From Escherichia coli (GTDB taxonomy: Bacteria; Pseudomonadota; Gammaproteobacteria; Enterobacterales; Enterobacteriaceae): DNA of 48,644 nucleotides. Made by a program: the position numbers and the translations under genes. The notes below the pieces were generated by a model. It was not told the DNA's origin. It saw only the letters and a program-made list of their open reading frames with translations, and ran no database searches. The stretch is taken from assembly GCF_016903815.1 (NCBI RefSeq), contig NZ_CP069971.1. One strand, given 5' to 3'. This document shows, piece after piece, positions 4,684 to 42,959 of this stretch; the first letter of the stretch is position 1; each line of letters begins with the position of its first letter.

Positions 4684-4706
4684 CCAAACACATGGAGTCT
4701 CGACAA

Positions 4707-5360
4707 ATGACTATCTCTGTAGGTATTTTCAACGGAAAAGGCGGCGTAACCAAATCAACAATTGCCCGTGCTTTAGCAGTTGCTTATGCAAAGGCTGGCT
4801 GGAATGTATGCCTGATCGATATGGATGTGCTTAACGGAACGGTAACGCGTTGGGTACAACGCAGAATGGCCAACAATATCGAACCAGCAATCGCGGCGCA
4901 GCCGTGCGGCACACCATCACAAGTCCAGAAAATCATCGAATCAGAAGTATACGACCTGGTTATCGTCGATGGCGGTGCCTACGCATCTGAATCAGTACCG
5001 AAGCTCTCTGAATTTCTGGATATGGTTATTTTGCCAACCAGATTCTCTACCGATGACCTGGAAACCACCGTTAACACAGCTCACGGCATCGTTAAAAAGG
5101 GTGTACCAATCAAGAAAATTTGCATGGTGTTTTCCGGCGCGGCTGAAAACGAAGCTGACTATATTGAAGCCCAAGAGTACCTGGCTAATACGCCATACTT
5201 TGTTGTCGATAAGTACATTCCCCACAAGCCAGCTCTGAGCAAAGCTCAGGATAAGGGCTTAAGCCTTATTGAGTGCTCATACGTTGCGCCACGCAAAAAG
5301 GCAGACGATGTTATCCAGGGGATTATCAATCAGCTTGAGGCTCTGACTACTGCCGCGTAA
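4707..5360 (+). CDS. parA: ParA-family partition ATPase (deviant Walker A)
   Basis: MTISVGIFNGKGGVTKSTIA...CLIDMD; GGAG RBS about 10 nt upstream of the ATG at 4707 (the ORF track starts at an upstream in-frame ATG, 4692). Confidence 0.8.
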   Translation: MTISVGIFNGKGGVTKSTIARALAVAYAKAGWNVCLIDMDVLNGTVTRWVQRRMANNIEPAIAAQPCGTPSQVQKIIESEVYDLVIVDGGAYASESVPKLSEFLDMVILPTRFSTDDLETTVNTAHGIVKKGVPIKKICMVFSGAAENEADYIEAQEYLANTPYFVVDKYIPHKPALSKAQDKGLSLIECSYVAPRKKADDVIQGIINQLEALTTAA

Positions 5361-5874: not shown

Positions 5875-5900
5875 AAAAAAGGCCCCCGAAGGGGCCTAAT
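5875..5900 (-). terminator. intrinsic terminator (GGCCCC-CGAA-GGGGCC, T-run on minus strand)
   Basis: Perfect GC hairpin flanked by an A6 run on the plus strand, i.e. T6 on the minus strand; lies between convergent genes. Confidence 0.65.
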
Positions 5901-5902
5901 CG

Positions 5903-6022
5903 CTACTTGCTGCTAATGTTTATCGTCACATTCAGAGCGTTATCAGTAATCTTCCAACCCTCCCCATGTGGCGTAAACAAAGCTCCAGTAACAACGATAA
6001 AAATACACATACAGTATTTTTT
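5903..6022 (-). CDS. small hydrophobic peptide (about 40 aa), function unknown
   Basis: MKKYCMCIFIVVTGALFTPHGEGWKITDNALNVTINISSK with an AGGG RBS, ending at the terminator hairpin. Confidence 0.3.
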   Translation of the reverse strand, partial: KKYCMCIFIVVTGALFTPHGEGWKITDNALNVTINISSK

Positions 6023-6423
6023 CATTGTATGGCCCTTACAGGCCGTTTCACGGCATCCCCACCGACGAAAACAACGCGAGAGCAAGCACGGCTGCTTGTG
6101 CTTGCATGTACGGCAACGGAGAATCCTCCCCTAAAGTCGGTGCCCGGGTGCGAATCGGCGGGAAGGTCCACAGGTATTTTACGATTATTTTAAGATTAGT
6201 TATAGGAAAGAAATTAAACGAAAAAACTCGTTTATTTTCACAAAATCAGTAACCTACCCACAATCTGTGAGTTTGCAGGCACAACAAGAACCACAATTTT
6301 ATGAAGCATAATAGTGGACTATTATTACCTTTTGGGTAAAATTAACTTGCTGCTTGTGCTTGCGTGGTTGTTTATACAACAACGTAATGCTGAAAGGACC
6401 GCGAATCCGATCAGCACGAAAGA

Positions 6424-6483: not shown

Positions 6484-6593
6484 TGTCTCTGTTAAAATCC
6501 CGCCGTATTGACATAAATGCGCCATTGGTGGACACTTTCCTAGCCGTAGCAAAATCTACGGTCGGGATTGGAACCCCGTAGACACAATGGCGC

Positions 6594-6616
6594 ATACCGC
6601 GTTAGCGGTTTTTTTA
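6594..6616 (+). terminator. second terminator-like hairpin in the antirepressor leader
   Basis: ACCGC-GTTA-GCGGT followed by T7. Confidence 0.45.
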
Positions 6617-6781
6617 TGCGTAAAGCACTGCTACACCCAAATTATGGTGGGGCGTGCGGGGGAGTCGTAAGACTCGCCGGTTCGTCATTGTGTCCGGTAG
6701 TTCCAACCCTGCACGTCTCACCACCCAATGATTGGAACCTGACGGTGGTGAGTATCCTTAACCTTTAAGGGAATCATCACA

Positions 6782-6973
6782 ATGACAAACCTACCCCATG
6801 ACTATTACGTCAACCTCGTAAAGATCCTTCTCAAGAAAGCCTCATACGCCGATAAATTCCGCCTGGCTGAAATAATCGAGCGCGAAGCTATGCGCATCGC
6901 CAGCAACGATAACGCTGTTTCTGTCGCAAAAATCTCCCTCGTAACCAAAGTAGTTATGGGAGGTGCAAAATGA
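6782..6973 (+). CDS. small protein translationally coupled to the antirepressor gene
   Basis: 63 aa; its stop overlaps the ATG of the next gene (ATGA overlap at 6970). Confidence 0.45.
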   Translation: MTNLPHDYYVNLVKILLKKASYADKFRLAEIIEREAMRIASNDNAVSVAKISLVTKVVMGGAK

Positions 6974-8151
6974 AAACGCTTCCGACCGTTAACACCCTAC
7001 AGCCTATCCTGCATAACCAGATCCCCGTTATCACTACTGAACTACTGGCGCAATTGTATGGAACCGAGCGCCAACGTCTGACGAACAATTTCAATAGAAA
7101 CAAGGAACGTTTTATAGAAGGTAAACACTTTTTTAGGATAGAAGGTAAAGAGTTACGAGAGTTGAAGAACAAAAACTCTTTAAGAGTTCCTGTGAGAGTA
7201 GTTAACGAACCATCTTTAAGAGGGTTACAAATTCCCCCGAAAGTTCGCTCCCTCATCCTCTGGACAGAACGCGGGGCTGCACGTCACGCCAAAATGCTTG
7301 AAACTAACCAAGCGTGGGATGTGTTCGAACGGCTGGAAGACTGCTATTTCAGCCAGAACGCGCAAACGGCCGCGACCGTAACCGTCTCGCCAAGCAATGC
7401 TCGTGAGGTTGTTGATACGCTCAACGCCAAACCAATGTATTACGTTAAGGTGTGCAATAACGAGCCACTCACAACCTCAGCCGATGTTGCCCAGGCATTC
7501 AGCACCACAAACAATTCCATCGTTATGGCCATCGATGCGTTACGCATTCCTCGCACAGCTGCGGCGCGTCATTTCTTTAAAGAGCAACGACCGTTGGAAG
7601 GAAGCGACCGCGAAATAACAATCTATCGCATGACAAAAGACGGATTTACCTTGCTCATGGAAAGTATCGACGGTCCAAGCGTGAAGGATATCAAGCTGGC
7701 CTACATTGAAGCTTTTAACGCTATCAGCAGCGTGTTAAAGGCAGAATACGAGCGAATACTATACAACCGACTGTATCAGGAAACAAAGATTATCCGAACG
7801 GCAACAGAACATCATCGGCTATTAACGGAACCAAACTACCGCAAGACACTAATCAAAGAGTTTGACAAAGCGACGGAGAAAACTAAAGCGGCACTAAATC
7901 TACCAACAATGACTAAGGATGATGTGATATCAGCCTTACTTCTTGATCTACTCAGAAACGCCAGAGCACTTATAAGCTTTGACGAAAACCTGAATCCTCA
8001 GCTCAAGCTACTACCACCGACAGGCAAAGTAGTCGACCAGGCTGATCACAACAGCATACTCAGCGTTCTGGATGCAAACCTGCCAGCCAGGACACTACAG
8101 GAACTGATAAAAATATCTGCGGATAAACTGGCCGCAGGTGCAAAACCATAA
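6970..8151 (+). CDS. antirepressor-like protein (ORF6N/KilA-type N-terminal domain)
   Basis: 393 aa; N-terminal ...NNFNRNKERFIEGKHFFRIEGKELRELK...LILWTERGAARHAKMLETNQAWDVFERLEDCYF matches the ORF6N-type antirepressor pattern as I recall it. Confidence 0.6.
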   Translation: MKTLPTVNTLQPILHNQIPVITTELLAQLYGTERQRLTNNFNRNKERFIEGKHFFRIEGKELRELKNKNSLRVPVRVVNEPSLRGLQIPPKVRSLILWTERGAARHAKMLETNQAWDVFERLEDCYFSQNAQTAATVTVSPSNAREVVDTLNAKPMYYVKVCNNEPLTTSADVAQAFSTTNNSIVMAIDALRIPRTAAARHFFKEQRPLEGSDREITIYRMTKDGFTLLMESIDGPSVKDIKLAYIEAFNAISSVLKAEYERILYNRLYQETKIIRTATEHHRLLTEPNYRKTLIKEFDKATEKTKAALNLPTMTKDDVISALLLDLLRNARALISFDENLNPQLKLLPPTGKVVDQADHNSILSVLDANLPARTLQELIKISADKLAAGAKP

Positions 8152-8155
8152 AACA

Positions 8156-8176
8156 AAGCGCCCGATTTGGGCGCTT
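8156..8176 (-). terminator. hairpin terminator between convergent genes
   Basis: AAGCGCCC-GATTT-GGGCGCTT with a T-rich flank on the minus strand. Confidence 0.5.
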
Positions 8177-8185
8177 CTTCAATTC

Positions 8186-8821
8186 TTAATATTTCGGTGT
8201 AATCAGTAGCGATACATGCCCTGATTTGTCACGAGAAACGTAATACTCGCCTCTCTTAGTCTTGAACTCAGCTTTCTGCATATCAGATTTAACAATCTGC
8301 TCTAACTGCGCAATCACGGTGTCTCTTTCACTTGACGCATCCAAGACTTCAACTGCTACGGCCATAGAAAGCAAGGAATCAGAGTTAGGCTTGGATACTC
8401 GCCATAATAACTCAGAAATCTTCCCATCCTTATCAACTCTAGCCCGACCGTTAACAGATGAGTTGATGGCAAATTCAACGGTGTTGTTACCTTGTTTAAC
8501 AGACTTAATTCTTATAGTGGAGGTGGCTTTTCCTGATGTAGCGATGCCTTCAAGGTCATCATTATATAACTTCTTAAACTTATCTACGGTCACACCATCA
8601 AAAGCAGCTCCGGTAGTAGCCGCAGTGTTGGAGTCTTCTGGGATCAAGGTCACAGCCGCAAGAGTATTAACAACTACAAAAGTTGCAATCCCGAGAAAGC
8701 CACTCACTAAAACAGCTTTGAACTTACCACCAGAAGACGAGGCACATTGTTTCCGATATGCGCCACGAACTACGAAGAAACACAAAATCAGGCTAATAAT
8801 AAACGCCACCAGCATCCCCAT
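8186..8821 (-). CDS. membrane protein with two N-terminal TM helices, function unknown
   Basis: 211 aa; MGMLVAFIISLILCFFVV and AVLVSGFLGIATFVVVNTLAAV hydrophobic segments, then a soluble domain of about 150 aa. Confidence 0.55.
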   Translation of the reverse strand: MGMLVAFIISLILCFFVVRGAYRKQCASSSGGKFKAVLVSGFLGIATFVVVNTLAAVTLIPEDSNTAATTGAAFDGVTVDKFKKLYNDDLEGIATSGKATSTIRIKSVKQGNNTVEFAINSSVNGRARVDKDGKISELLWRVSKPNSDSLLSMAVAVEVLDASSERDTVIAQLEQIVKSDMQKAEFKTKRGEYYVSRDKSGHVSLLITPKY

Positions 8822-10173: not shown

Positions 10174-10285
10174 CGGGTTATCTCCGGTTTAACCAGGGCG
10201 GGTATCGCTCGGTTTCGGGTATAACCTTAGGAAATTTTTTCCCACCTGTAAAGCACTTTTTATATAAATCTATAATTATATAAAT
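10174..10285 (-). promoter_or_regulatory. conserved promoter-leader cassette, copy 2
   Basis: Identical to copy 1 over about 103 bp. Confidence 0.6.
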
Positions 10286-10374
10286 AATAGTAACTGGTGT
10301 TTTTTTAGGCGAAGCATTAAACATTTTTGTTTAGCTTATTGGCAAGGTCTTGAAAAAGACATTTCAGCAATGCT

Positions 10375-10393
10375 ATACCATTGAACATGGTAT
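10375..10393. promoter_or_regulatory. operator-like perfect palindrome ATACCAT-TGAAC-ATGGTAT
   Basis: Lies about 50 nt upstream of the 10441 start codon, next to a TTGAAA -35-like element. Confidence 0.5.
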
Positions 10394-10440
10394 CGGCTGA
10401 ATTTTGTAATTAACACATTTTAAACAATTTGAGGTGCCAA

Positions 10441-10725
10441 ATGGCTAAACAAAAATCTGAAATTGATGCTATTCGAGCATTAACAGAAGTAACAATTAAA
10501 GGTTTTGAGCAGGTTGCTCAGGCATTAGTTGATATGAGAGAAGCTCAGGGAAAAGTCGTACGAGCAACATATAATGGATTAACCTCCTCAGGAAAATCTC
10601 GCTATGTTGCATCGCTAGTAGAGGAAGTAGGATCACAAGCTGAAGTAAGCCGCATGTTAAATATCACACCAGGGCGCGTTAGCCAGCTTATGAAGTCCGA
10701 AAAAAACCGCAAAAATGGAAAGTAA
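10441..10725 (+). CDS. small protein with a C-terminal HTH-like segment
   Basis: MAKQKSEIDAIRAL...GSQAEVSRMLNITPGRVSQLMK; GAGGTG RBS; the track ORF at 10429 begins with TTG. Confidence 0.45.
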   Translation: MAKQKSEIDAIRALTEVTIKGFEQVAQALVDMREAQGKVVRATYNGLTSSGKSRYVASLVEEVGSQAEVSRMLNITPGRVSQLMKSEKNRKNGK

Positions 10726-10731
10726 ATAAGT

Positions 10732-10750
10732 AAGGCCCCAATGGGGCCTT
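10732..10750. terminator. hairpin terminator between convergent genes
   Basis: AAGGCCCC-AAT-GGGGCCTT. Confidence 0.5.
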
Positions 10751-10758
10751 ACATTATG

Positions 10759-11058
10759 TTAGACATGGAACGCTACTCGCTTTCCTGTAGGAAGCTCAAC
10801 ATCCAGGCTTAATTTGCCTCCCATAGCTTCAACGTAACGCTTTAATGTCGCCAGCTTTAAATCATTTCCGCGCTGCTCCAGCTTTGTTACTGCTGGCTGG
10901 CTTATACCCATCGCCTCAGCAACCTGTTTTTGTGATAACTGGAGTTCTTCACGCATCATCTGCAAGCCGACCTCAAGAATCATCTCATCTGCCATTTCTT
11001 TAATTCGCGCCTGGCTTTCAGGTGAACGGCTGGCAATCACCTCATCTAATGTTCTCAT
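10759..11058 (-). CDS. HigA-like antitoxin (XRE-family HTH)
   Basis: 99 aa; ...LQLSQKQVAEAMGISQPAVTKLEQ...; 1-nt start/stop overlap with the upstream toxin-like gene. Confidence 0.6.
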   Translation of the reverse strand: MRTLDEVIASRSPESQARIKEMADEMILEVGLQMMREELQLSQKQVAEAMGISQPAVTKLEQRGNDLKLATLKRYVEAMGGKLSLDVELPTGKRVAFHV

Positions 11059-11411
11059 TACTTGCTCTCCAGTGTGTTCAGATGTGCTGCAAACTCATCC
11101 TCAGCTATACGCACCAGTTTTTCATAAAACCGTTTATCGTTACTTTTGTCTCCTGCACAAAGAACGATGGCCCGGCGAATCGGATCGAACGCATAAAAGG
11201 CTCTTATCGGACGGCCAGAAAACTGAACGCGAAGCTCTTTCATATTTTTGTACCGAGAACCTTTTACGGTATCGGCATATGGCCTGGGTAACTCAGGTCC
11301 GTAAACCTGTAGCTTTTTCAAATCAGCCAAAACCTTTTCCTGAAGAGCGTCTTCTTGCTCATTTAGCCAGTCGTCAAATCGCTGGCTAAAAAGTACCGTC
11401 CACATGCTCAA
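11058..11411 (-). CDS. RelE/HigB-family toxin-like protein (Gp49-type)
   Basis: 117 aa; ...VKGSRYKNMKELRVQFSGRPIRAFYAFDPIRRAIVLCAGDKSNDKRFY... matches the addiction-module killer pattern. Confidence 0.6.
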   Translation of the reverse strand: MSMWTVLFSQRFDDWLNEQEDALQEKVLADLKKLQVYGPELPRPYADTVKGSRYKNMKELRVQFSGRPIRAFYAFDPIRRAIVLCAGDKSNDKRFYEKLVRIAEDEFAAHLNTLESK

Positions 11412-11414
11412 TCC

Positions 11415-11460
11415 TATAACCTGTAGTTTATATCACTAACTATATAACCTGTGAGTTATA
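11415..11460. promoter_or_regulatory. two TATAACCTGT(G)AGTTATA repeats upstream of the toxin-antitoxin pair (candidate operators)
   Basis: 11415-11432 and 11443-11460; the second has palindromic arms TATAAC/GTTATA. Confidence 0.5.
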
Positions 11461-11649
11461 ATTTCAAGAAAAACGGGGCTATTTAACATAATGGACGTTA
11501 TCGGCACCACCGGATCACCGTTCATTGTCGGATCTAAAAAATCCGCTCAAAAGATCATGTTTTCCTGGGCGTTTTCCACCGTTTTTTATGTTGCTTATTT
11601 GTTAATGAAATCTCGTTTTCAGTTTCGCCTCATTTTCGACGCGAAAGCC

Positions 11650-11940
11650 CTATTTTTGTGACTTTACTCCTGGCATATGGACTTCCCAGCGACGAATCCC
11701 CATAGCTGCGCAAAAATCAGCCACATAATTCAATCCCGCCCATTCGCGGATACCACCACGGGCTTTTTCAATGAAAACGGCAATCCCTTTTTTATTGAGA
11801 GCAAAAAGCCGCCAGCTTTTTGTCACTTCGTCCTGGGTAGCCACAACACAAGTGAAAGCTCCCATGCGATACAGGTCCAAGAACTCTTTGCGTGTTTTGC
11901 GTACAAGTTCCATAACAAACCTCATATTTGCATGTTTCAA
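11650..11940 (-). CDS. hypothetical protein
   Basis: 96 aa ORF overlapping the upstream gene by 4 nt. Confidence 0.4.
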   Translation of the reverse strand: MKHANMRFVMELVRKTRKEFLDLYRMGAFTCVVATQDEVTKSWRLFALNKKGIAVFIEKARGGIREWAGLNYVADFCAAMGIRRWEVHMPGVKSQK

Positions 11941-12236
11941 ACATCTGTTTTGTTATCAATGAAGATTAACCCTAACCCAGCGAAGTAACACAGCAGCGCC
12001 CAGGCTGCATACGGAATGCTGGATCTGGATGTGGACTCCTTTAACATCTGCCAGTTGCGAACATTGCGACTATCTTTTAAGCCAAGTTTTTTGGCCAACT
12101 GCGATCCGCTCATTCCGGTCAGGCCAATGACTGCCCGAACTTCTCCACATGTAGGAGATTCCCATTCATCCGCTTTTTTTAAACAAGCCGGATTCAACAT
12201 TTTTAAAACAGTATCTTTATCCATAACCATCTCCAT
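11937..12236 (-). CDS. hypothetical protein with HTH-like segment
   Basis: 99 aa; ...IGLTGMSGSQLAKKLGLKDSRNVRNW... Confidence 0.4.
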   Translation of the reverse strand: MEMVMDKDTVLKMLNPACLKKADEWESPTCGEVRAVIGLTGMSGSQLAKKLGLKDSRNVRNWQMLKESTSRSSIPYAAWALLCYFAGLGLIFIDNKTDV

Positions 12237-12867: not shown

Positions 12868-13848
12868 TTAATGTTGGAGTGATTTCCAGGTCTTTCTTAG
12901 CCTGTTATAACGCTGCTCAACGAGGGAGCGTAAATATGCAAGGTCAGCACCAGGATACATGCCATCAGCAAATTCCTGGCTAACCTCTCTAGTGATTTGA
13001 TGACGAAGTTCGGCCTCTCCCTTTTCCTGAACAAGACGCGCAGCTCTCTCCGCTGCTTTCTGTTTTGCCTTTATCTCTCTGGCCGTCTTCCTCTGACGCC
13101 ATACATTCTCCATCTGCTCCTGAATAACAATACGCTTATAATCAGCCTCCGTTATCGCTTTTTTAAGCCGTTCGCTATTCTTCGCATTGAAGTAATTAAG
13201 TTTCTGGCTAACCGCACGTCTCCATGCTTGTTCAGTAATACCAACTGTTTCCAGCAGTTGATCACGAATCTCGATTTTCGCTGGCCAATACTGTTTATTC
13301 ACCCGATCCCAGCGACGTTCATAATCAATAAAACCTAACTCTTTCAGTTGCGACAACGCCCTTGTACAGCGCGTTATAGACTTGTTCCCAGCTTCGGATA
13401 CGGTAGACAGGCCGCAAAAATCAGCCAACGCCTCAGCACTGGCCAGAACCCGCTTAGAAATGATGTTTACATGGTGCAAAATCGCAGCAATCACAGCATT
13501 AATCGCCCGACGACGATGCTCGTTTATCCGGCGTTTCCGCTCTGACGGTTGATTAACGTAGAACGCAACCTCACACGTAAGATCACGACCATTAATGCGC
13601 TGTAAAGCATCAGATAACACCAGCGGCAGCTTGTGCGTATGGTGCTTTGGAGGCTGGAACTCCGGCGACAAATTACAAACGTAAGCTGAACGTAGAGACG
13701 GCATTGGTCTATCCATATGTTCGCTCTTGCGTCCACGGAAAACCAACGTATAATGGGAGTTGTCGAGGCGCCCATGGATTGTTGTTGTTGGTTTTCCGTG
13801 GATGTCGCAAGAAGCCCGCAGATTTATCTGCGGGCTTTTTGTTTCCAT
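12868..13848 (-). CDS. repA: replication initiator RepA (IncFII RepA-like); may include a leader ORF, with an alternative internal start near 13716
   Basis: ...CGLSTVSEAGNKSITRCTRALSQLKELGFIDYERR... resembles the conserved core of IncFII RepA1 (recalled, not searched). Confidence 0.65.
   Translation of the reverse strand: METKSPQINLRASCDIHGKPTTTIHGRLDNSHYTLVFRGRKSEHMDRPMPSLRSAYVCNLSPEFQPPKHHTHKLPLVLSDALQRINGRDLTCEVAFYVNQPSERKRRINEHRRRAINAVIAAILHHVNIISKRVLASAEALADFCGLSTVSEAGNKSITRCTRALSQLKELGFIDYERRWDRVNKQYWPAKIEIRDQLLETVGITEQAWRRAVSQKLNYFNAKNSERLKKAITEADYKRIVIQEQMENVWRQRKTAREIKAKQKAAERAARLVQEKGEAELRHQITREVSQEFADGMYPGADLAYLRSLVEQRYNRLRKTWKSLQH
13762..13840 (+). ncRNA. CopA-like antisense RNA opposite the repA 5' region (putative)
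   Basis: Plus-strand promoter TTGCGT (13727-13732), 16-nt spacer, TATAAT (13749-13754); terminator AGCCCGCAGAT..ATCTGCGGGCT + T-run at 13813-13840, antisense to the first repA codons and RBS. Confidence 0.5.
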
Positions 13849-42883: not shown

Positions 42884-42959
42884 TGGTGGCCCCTACCGGA
42901 TTTGAACCGATGACCGTGCGATTATGAGTCGCCTGCTCTAACCACTGAGCTAAGGGGCC
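42884..42959 (-). tRNA. tRNA with CAU anticodon (Met or Ile2-type)
   Basis: 76 nt; GGCCCCTTAGCTCAGTGGTTAGAGCAGGCGACTCATAATCGCACGGTCATCGGTTCAAATCCGGTAGGGGCCACCA; cloverleaf folds by eye, encoded CCA end. Confidence 0.8.

Follow-up and report, generated by a model that had tools for sequence, protein, structure and literature searches.

We analysed a stretch of Escherichia coli DNA of 48,644 nucleotides (nt; NCBI RefSeq assembly GCF_016903815.1, contig NZ_CP069971.1), called the window throughout, for a toxin-antitoxin (TA) locus at positions 10759-11460. The original prediction for this interval, made from the sequence letters, was a HigB/HigA-like TA pair with two upstream repeats and a role in plasmid stabilisation. 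Two genes lie there, both on the minus strand. The toxin gene (11058-11405) comes first; it starts with ATG and encodes a 115-amino-acid (aa) protein with a Gp49 domain, which belongs to the RelE/ParE superfamily and is 'HigB-like'. The antitoxin gene (10759-11058) comes second and encodes a 99-aa protein with a helix-turn-helix (HTH) of the XRE type. Base 11058 is common to the toxin stop codon TAA and the antitoxin start codon ATG, so that the genes overlap by 1 base in the sequence TAATG, which is the overlapping stop and start that had been predicted. Genes and repeats do fill the interval, but the strand is minus, and one base separates the end of the interval from the -35 hexamer (11462-11467) of the promoter. 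The toxin gene is preceded by the Shine-Dalgarno sequence AGGA (11412-11415, minus strand), 6 nt before its ATG, and the antitoxin gene by GGAG (11067-11070, minus strand), which stands 8 nt before the antitoxin ATG, still within the toxin gene at its 3' end. The toxin-first order with an adjacent antitoxin gene was found in 31 of the 33 distinct homologous loci that had a callable downstream gene.

When the toxin gene was set against its counterpart in the homologous locus L016, codon positions 1, 2 and 3 differed at 9, 5 and 57 sites, respectively, with 49 synonymous versus 12 non-synonymous codon changes. A third-position excess of differences was seen in both genes in a comparison with eight homologous loci. 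Because the differences are concentrated at third codon positions, both minus-strand open reading frames (ORFs) are real genes, and the same pattern indicates that the toxin gene and the antitoxin gene are under purifying selection. It also rules out two plus-strand ORFs (11022-11291 and 11072-11389), which are shadows of the minus-strand genes. A TTG at 11411 was considered as the toxin start and rejected, because the homologues begin with MW and AGGA stands 6 nt upstream of the ATG at 11405.

The toxin matched the Pfam family Gp49 (PF05973) with 81.3 bits (cut-off 23.9, E=5.4e-23) over model positions 1-89 of 90, and PHROG 3445, 'toxin', with E=2e-33. Its family contains 2385 representatives at 50% clustering (E<=1e-3). 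No relative turned up in the PDB by sequence, whether the query was the toxin by itself or a 51-sequence profile. We then relied on a structural model: AlphaFold2, run on the 51-sequence alignment, gave a predicted local distance difference test (pLDDT) score of 97.6 and a predicted template-modelling score (pTM) of 0.90. The top PDB matches of this model in Foldseek were all mRNA interferases of the RelE/HigB kind (6af3/6af4, Streptococcus pneumoniae HigB; 2khe, Thermus thermophilus RelE; 5jaa, Vibrio cholerae HigB2; and 4fxe, E. coli RelE; E 1e-4 to 1e-3), with template-modelling (TM) scores of 0.56-0.71 versus 0.46-0.49 for ParE proteins (ParE2, 5cw7, E about 1e-2), and ParE proteins were not the closest structural or sequence neighbours of the toxin. 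These results predict a RelE/HigB fold with high confidence. Residue G64 is invariant in the alignment of the toxin family, and the toxin keeps all family-invariant residues. We also noticed a weak match between the toxin and the last 100 residues of NsnC, a PADLOC model (E=6e-7), which suggests that a Gp49-like domain has been fused into a candidate defence protein.

The antitoxin matched Pfam HTH_3 with 40 bits (cut-off 23, E=4e-10) over residues 32-83, which form its HTH, with the recognition helix at S53-Q62; it also matched PHROG 2339 (E=1e-31). Its phmmer matches among solved structures were HigA3 (6lty) and HigA2 (7ewc) of Mycobacterium tuberculosis and HigA of Streptococcus pneumoniae (6af3_B). 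The layout is the same as in solved HigA antitoxins: an N-terminal segment of ~30 residues, a Cro/C1-type HTH and a short C-terminal beta region. In a model of the toxin fused to the antitoxin through a linker, built on 22 paired sequences, the antitoxin N-terminus had a pLDDT of about 95, above that of its own HTH domain. This fits a role of the N-terminal ~30 residues in toxin binding, which we consider probable.

Taken together, these matches uphold the prediction that a RelE/HigB-family toxin-like gene is followed by an XRE-HTH antitoxin-like gene, the more so as the two proteins are 55% and 47% identical over their full lengths to HigB and HigA of IncC plasmids (toxin E=8e-46). The name HigB/HigA holds for the identity of the pair and not for membership in the Rts1-type HigB family. 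Pfam gave only Gp49 for the toxin at E<=0.01, with no canonical HigB family, and no chains of the Rts1-type or E. coli HigB appeared in the PDB sequence searches with the toxin. HigB2 of Vibrio cholerae (5JAA) was found neither by phmmer nor with the 51-sequence profile; it is a match by fold only, at 16-18% identity, and the label 'higB2' in Yersinia phage records is therefore valid only at the superfamily level. In the literature, Gp49-domain toxins are set apart from the Tad toxins and from the classical HigB proteins of Rts1, E. coli and V. cholerae, and our searches are in line with this. Judged by sequence, 'HigB' is a loose label here, taken from gene order and superfamily, and the toxin belongs to the Gp49-domain branch.

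Upstream of the toxin gene, a promoter scan detected one sigma-70-like promoter, TTGAAA-17-TATAGT, with 10/12 matches; it is the only such site on either strand in 10400-11700. Its -35 hexamer TTGAAA is at 11462-11467 and its -10 hexamer TATAGT at 11439-11444, both on the minus strand. The two repeats, TATAACCTGTAGTTTATA at 11415-11432 and TATAACCTGTGAGTTATA at 11443-11460, are 28 bp apart from start to start, and both overlap this promoter region. They had been predicted as copies of one repeat; two repeats are indeed present, conserved in position and form, but they are not identical. Each is an imperfect 18-bp palindrome of 7-4-7 geometry and of the form TATAAnC-N4-GnTTATA, and we regard them as predicted operators. 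The distal one (11443-11460; TATAACT-caca-GGTTATA in minus-strand reading) takes up the spacer of the promoter and extends over the first two bases of the -10 hexamer. The proximal one (11415-11432; TATAAAC-taca-GGTTATA in minus-strand reading) lies between the -10 hexamer and the ribosome-binding site, around the expected transcription start, and its last base is shared with the Shine-Dalgarno sequence of the toxin gene. When up to 3 mismatches were allowed, the 18-mer occurred at only these two places on either strand of the 48.6 kb (0.12 expected); at least two matches anywhere in the window were seen in 2 of 100 shuffles. A third, weaker dyad between the operators, TATATAG-ttag-TGATATA (2 mismatches), has no conserved counterpart in other loci and was left out of the count. 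We also considered, and dropped, an internal promoter for the antitoxin gene, as proposed for Acinetobacter baumannii: the promoter scan showed no promoter-like site inside the toxin gene.

We asked whether the palindromes are conserved in 33 distinct upstream regions of homologous loci, collected by exact-protein look-ups and a viral-contig scan, in which toxin identity ranged from 100% to about 42%. A site was scored when it lay within 80 nt of the start codon, had outer TATA...TATA with at most 1 mismatch and had inner triplets that were palindromic with at most 1 mismatch. By this rule 24 of the 33 regions carried at least one site and 12 carried at least two, whereas about 0.5 regions were expected from the background density in the rest of the same loci (0.016 sites per 80 nt). 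Shuffled regions gave a mean of 1.65 regions with a site and a maximum of 7. In an alignment of eight loci, both dyads appeared as conserved islands, whereas the sequence between them had diverged; a TTGnnn hexamer resembling a -35 was present upstream of the distal dyad in most of the eight, in a register that varies in some. The proximal palindrome is conserved in the homologues at about 27-32 nt upstream of the start codon.

The half-sites also varied with the antitoxin. Recognition helices of the form SQPA(V/I) were paired with TATAA half-sites and those of the form xQP(T/S)V with TATAG half-sites, apart from one case; lineage confounds this correlation, which is no more than suggestive. 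The promoter of the IncC higBA module carries TATAGGT-ttga-ATCTATA and TATAGGA-ttgc-ACCTATA, which follow the same TATA-N10-TATA pattern, and the promoter of M. tuberculosis higBA3 has TATAACC-TAGA-GGTTATA around its -10 (PMC7340258). M. tuberculosis HigA3 (MtHigA3) binds a 20-mer that covers the left half of this palindrome with a dissociation constant (Kd) of 11 nM, and it was crystallised on the 20-mer (PMC7340258). HigA2 of the same species binds a similarly built dyad, ATATCAC-N6-GTGATAT (PMC11205783). Two related loci were noted in passing. An E. coli variant with 68% identity, present on many contigs (loci L003/L004, 3144-3425, and L022), has a second HTH_3 gene of 93 aa, downstream of the antitoxin gene and overlapping it; only 3 bp separate its two operators, and a third, partial half-site comes after them. 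On a contig of the Shimwellia blattae type (L006, 2501-3150), a 72%-identical TA pair with the same two palindromes is inserted in a type I-E CRISPR-Cas locus, with cse1 and cas3 on either side.

The gene content of the window identifies it as a phage-plasmid and not as a plain plasmid. It encodes an IncFII-type RepA (12868-13848, on the same strand as the TA genes and 1.4 kb upstream of them) and a ParA (4692-5360), together with a CI/LexA-like repressor, an ORF6N/Rha antirepressor-like gene, tail-fibre genes and a large terminase. The view that the TA pair fits the partition and replication genes is plausible in the light of RepA and ParA, with the amendment that the replicon is also a phage. 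Near-identical replicons of 47-49 kb were found in E. coli and as the Yersinia phages vB_YpM_39/41/44, whose records call the toxin 'higB2'; phages that carry the TA pair were isolated on Yersinia pestis EV76. In the plasmid collection, 61 records share repA, 59 share the terminase and about 64 records outside Yersinia have the TA pair at >=95% identity; these similar totals, each taken from its own list of records, fit a TA pair carried by most members of the family. The pair is also present beside pla on the Y. pestis plasmid pPCP1 (locus L050, strain CO92, NC_003132.1, 7790-8430; also locus L048, 3501-4147), and homologues were found in a Rodentibacter prophage tail region, in the Shimwellia CRISPR-Cas locus and on chromosomes.

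These data suggest that the locus, which has the toxin gene first and belongs to the Gp49-HigBA group, is very probably an intact type II TA operon that regulates itself. In the mechanism that we propose, the single sigma-70 promoter would drive a two-gene mRNA, and the TAATG overlap would couple translation of the antitoxin to translation of the toxin. The RelE-fold toxin would most likely stop growth by cutting mRNA, as we infer from its tested relatives, and the antitoxin would neutralise it, probably through the N-terminal ~30 residues. The antitoxin HTH, acting as a dimer, would bind the two 18-bp palindromes, of which palindrome 1 occupies the promoter spacer and the -10 and palindrome 2 would cover the transcription start and the leader. 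Such binding would repress the operon, and the toxin would probably serve as a co-repressor. For a phage-plasmid with RepA and ParA, the most likely benefit would be post-segregational killing or growth arrest of the cells that lose the prophage-plasmid. Precedent and context make post-segregational stabilisation a plausible benefit of the module to its replicon, and we hold this part of the interpretation with a confidence only slightly above even.

The same machine could bring its carrier a benefit other than protection from loss: it could protect the lysogen from other phages by abortive infection or superinfection exclusion, or it could serve in anti-addiction or in competition with replicons that have the same TA. 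Partition is already provided for by ParA on the replicon, and homologues occur where plasmid stabilisation is irrelevant, namely in the Rodentibacter prophage, the Shimwellia CRISPR-Cas locus and chromosomes. The weak NsnC match of the toxin points in the same direction, as do the 98%-identical copy on pPCP1 and the isolation of TA-carrying phages on Y. pestis EV76. However, we found no defence phenotype for the subfamily in the literature examined, and the pair matches no complete PADLOC system; the validated relatives stabilise plasmids (PMC8265657; PMC5906591), and the module stands 1.4 kb from repA and is apparently kept by most family members. We consider such another benefit unlikely, albeit the main rival reading. 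A toxin that is inactive or weak, so that the pair would amount to an XRE regulator with an accessory protein, has been suggested for M. tuberculosis HigA2, which bound eight genomic sites and whose HigB2 was non-toxic in Mycobacterium smegmatis (PMC11205783). For the window this is improbable: the toxin gene shows the signature of purifying selection given above, the family-invariant residues are kept, including the G64 needed for the toxicity of IncC HigB, and the operator 18-mer is found nowhere else in the 48.6-kb replicon.

Two further alternatives concern the repeats and the target of the toxin. Each repeat has TATA motifs that resemble -10 hexamers, and some shuffled windows did contain two matches at 3 mismatches, as would be the case if the repeats were A+T-rich promoter sequence (-10-like or UP-like) that recurs by chance and is bound by no protein. 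Chance repetition would hardly explain the dyad symmetry, the 7-4-7 geometry and the conservation of both positions where the intervening sequence has diverged, nor the inner half-site bases that change with the recognition helix (TATAA with SQPA, TATAG with QP(T/S)V, apart from the one exception), nor the same palindrome in the promoter of higBA3 in the GC-rich M. tuberculosis; we judge this explanation very improbable. It is equally hard to see the toxin as a ParE-like gyrase poison. RelE/HigB structures score above ParE structures in both E-value and TM, and the two closest tested relatives are ribonucleases (RNases; PMC8265657; PMC5906591), so that a gyrase poison seems highly improbable even though the NCBI name is 'RelE/ParE family toxin' and ParE2 structures are among the fold matches.

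Several points weigh against the autoregulated, stabilising TA operon that we favour. Deletion of higBA2 from the native A. baumannii plasmid pAB120 left retention unaffected (PMC5906591), and where a replicon is actively partitioned, its TA module may make no difference to stability. HigB2 of M. tuberculosis, a member of the family, lacked toxicity in M. smegmatis (PMC11205783). An oligonucleotide with the full palindrome of MtHigA3 (DNA4) gave no shift in an electrophoretic mobility shift assay, and only the one with the left half did (PMC7340258), which makes MtHigA3, the closest biochemical precedent for the operator, an ambiguous one. The fused model was judged by its pLDDT, which leaves contacts between the antitoxin N-terminus and the toxin presumptive. 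The record counts for repA, terminase and TA are separate totals and not a record-by-record overlap, though they fit. Finally, we found in the literature no functional study of the window pair itself or of its 98%-identical pPCP1 copy.

The module itself is an ordinary new member of a known family, with a 55%/47% identical relative already characterised. The analysis adds a testable promoter and operator map for a module that is present on about 60 E. coli phage-plasmids and on pPCP1. The two-palindrome operator design, to which the papers on the IncC and A. baumannii systems do not draw attention, is conserved across the family and fits the palindrome of M. tuberculosis higBA3. The module also supports a reading of the replicon as a plasmid-prophage with its own maintenance kit of RepA, ParA and TA. 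We further considered whether the near-identical modules of pPCP1 and of the phage-plasmids and phages that infect Y. pestis cross-talk and whether the Gp49-HigBA family shares one operator 'code', both of which are doubtful at present. If the modules did cross-talk, the antitoxin from a resident pPCP1 would block the toxin that comes in and shut down its promoter, and vice versa, so that each module would cancel the addiction imposed by the other; as a result, the pla virulence plasmid could be displaced, or the establishment of the phage-plasmid could be affected. If there were such a code, the outer TATA-N10-TATA would be fixed from Actinobacteria to Enterobacteria and the inner three bases would be set by residues of the recognition helix, which could insulate co-resident paralogues.

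Other features were recorded around the operon and elsewhere in the window. After the antitoxin stop codon there is a G+C-rich hairpin with a 10-bp stem (10730-10752; both strands), an inverted repeat with 11-bp arms that are 100% complementary, which is likely to be a two-way terminator between the antitoxin gene and a convergent 94-aa gene (10441-10725, plus strand). The latter gene matches PHROG 15590, of unknown function, and its product has a weakly HTH-like C-terminus. The segment ~10174-10758 is absent from the Yersinia phages and from some plasmids, whose matches begin at query base 70, and there has therefore been a local insertion or deletion adjoining the TA pair. On the other side, two small conserved genes on the minus strand (11650-11925 and 11937-12236) are located between repA and the TA promoter. 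They match PHROGs 4595 and 8351 (function not known), and the product of 11937-12236 has weak similarity to HTH proteins and to 'mobile mystery protein A'. We saw no terminator-like site between these two genes and the TA promoter, and read-through into the operon is possible. Further away, Rfam matches to ryfA, isrK and C4 antisense RNA were found at 5875-6171 (minus), 6543-6615 (plus) and 6640-6728 (plus), respectively. The C4 RNA stands just upstream of the ORF6N/Rha antirepressor-like gene (6970-8151, plus), in a layout that resembles the c4-ant immunity region immI of P1/P7. A tRNA gene is present at 42887-42959 (minus; Rfam tRNA, 67 bits).

Among known systems, HigB2/HigA2 of V. cholerae (5JAA) and HigBA of S. 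pneumoniae (6AF3/6AF4) resemble the window pair in structure. Their toxins have the RelE fold with a long C-terminal helix (Foldseek E 1e-4 to 2e-4, TM up to 0.71), and their antitoxins are XRE proteins, of which S. pneumoniae HigA is also a sequence match (E=5e-3); the identity of these toxins to the window toxin is only 14-18%. The Tad-Ata systems (Paracoccus pAMI2, N15 gp49/gp48 and SXT) share the Pfam family Gp49, which is named after N15 gp49, as well as the toxin-first order and an XRE antitoxin. Tad-Ata is cited as stabilising the phage-plasmid N15 (Dziewit et al. 2007, as cited in PMC5906591). Its branch is remote, and about 20% identity is given in the literature for Tad toxins versus the A. 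baumannii HigB group. A tblastn search of the phage collection with the window toxin (E<=1e-3) returned no N15 record, although the presence of N15 in that collection is unconfirmed.

The antitoxin has the same architecture as that of M. tuberculosis HigBA3 (Rv3182-Rv3183; 6LTY, 6LTZ), in which a labile N-terminal segment of ~34 residues is followed by an HTH and a C-terminal beta region. HigA3 matched the window antitoxin in phmmer (E=4.6e-5, residues 20-88), with similar recognition helices (VSQARVSKLE in HigA3, ISQPAVTKLE in the window), and the palindrome in the higBA3 promoter is nearly identical to the window operators. It differs in that HigBA3 is chromosomal and actinobacterial, that only one such palindrome was described and that the authors centred the dimer differently. 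HigBA2 of A. baumannii pAB120 is, like the window pair, a reverse TA system with a Gp49-domain toxin and an XRE antitoxin. Its toxin is an RNase, its antitoxin represses the operon with the toxin as co-repressor, and the module stabilises an unstable plasmid (PMC5906591, Armalyte et al. 2018). The pAB120 and IncC proteins are 51% identical; the pAB120 complex is about 100 kDa, and its operator sequence was not defined (PMC5906591).

The closest characterised system is HigBA of IncC (IncA/C) plasmids, which is plasmid-borne and toxin-first, with proteins of 116 and 100 aa (PMC8265657). HigB inhibits growth and cleaves mRNA, HigA neutralises it, and the module stabilises pACYC184 (PMC8265657, Qi, Kamruzzaman & Iredell 2021). 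G64 is conserved, and the G64V change in IncC HigB abolished both toxicity and mRNA cleavage (PMC8265657). Two TATA-N10-TATA palindromes are also present in the IncC promoter; the authors took the promoter region for a non-canonical SOS box, and their paper does not describe the palindromes (PMC8265657). In contrast to the window operators, which are 28 bp apart, the IncC sites overlap by 2 bp and have TATAGGT/TATAGAT half-sites; the recognition helix is RQPTVSEME versus SQPAVTKLE in the window, and the host replicon is a conjugative plasmid. Closest in sequence are YPPCP1.08c/09c (7790-8430) of Y. pestis pPCP1, which are 98% identical in both proteins and about 96% identical in DNA. This copy differs in its location on a 9.6-kb ColE1-type virulence plasmid, in its generic annotation and in a degenerate left arm of the proximal operator (GGTAAGC), and it shares the promoter and the distal operator with the module in the window.

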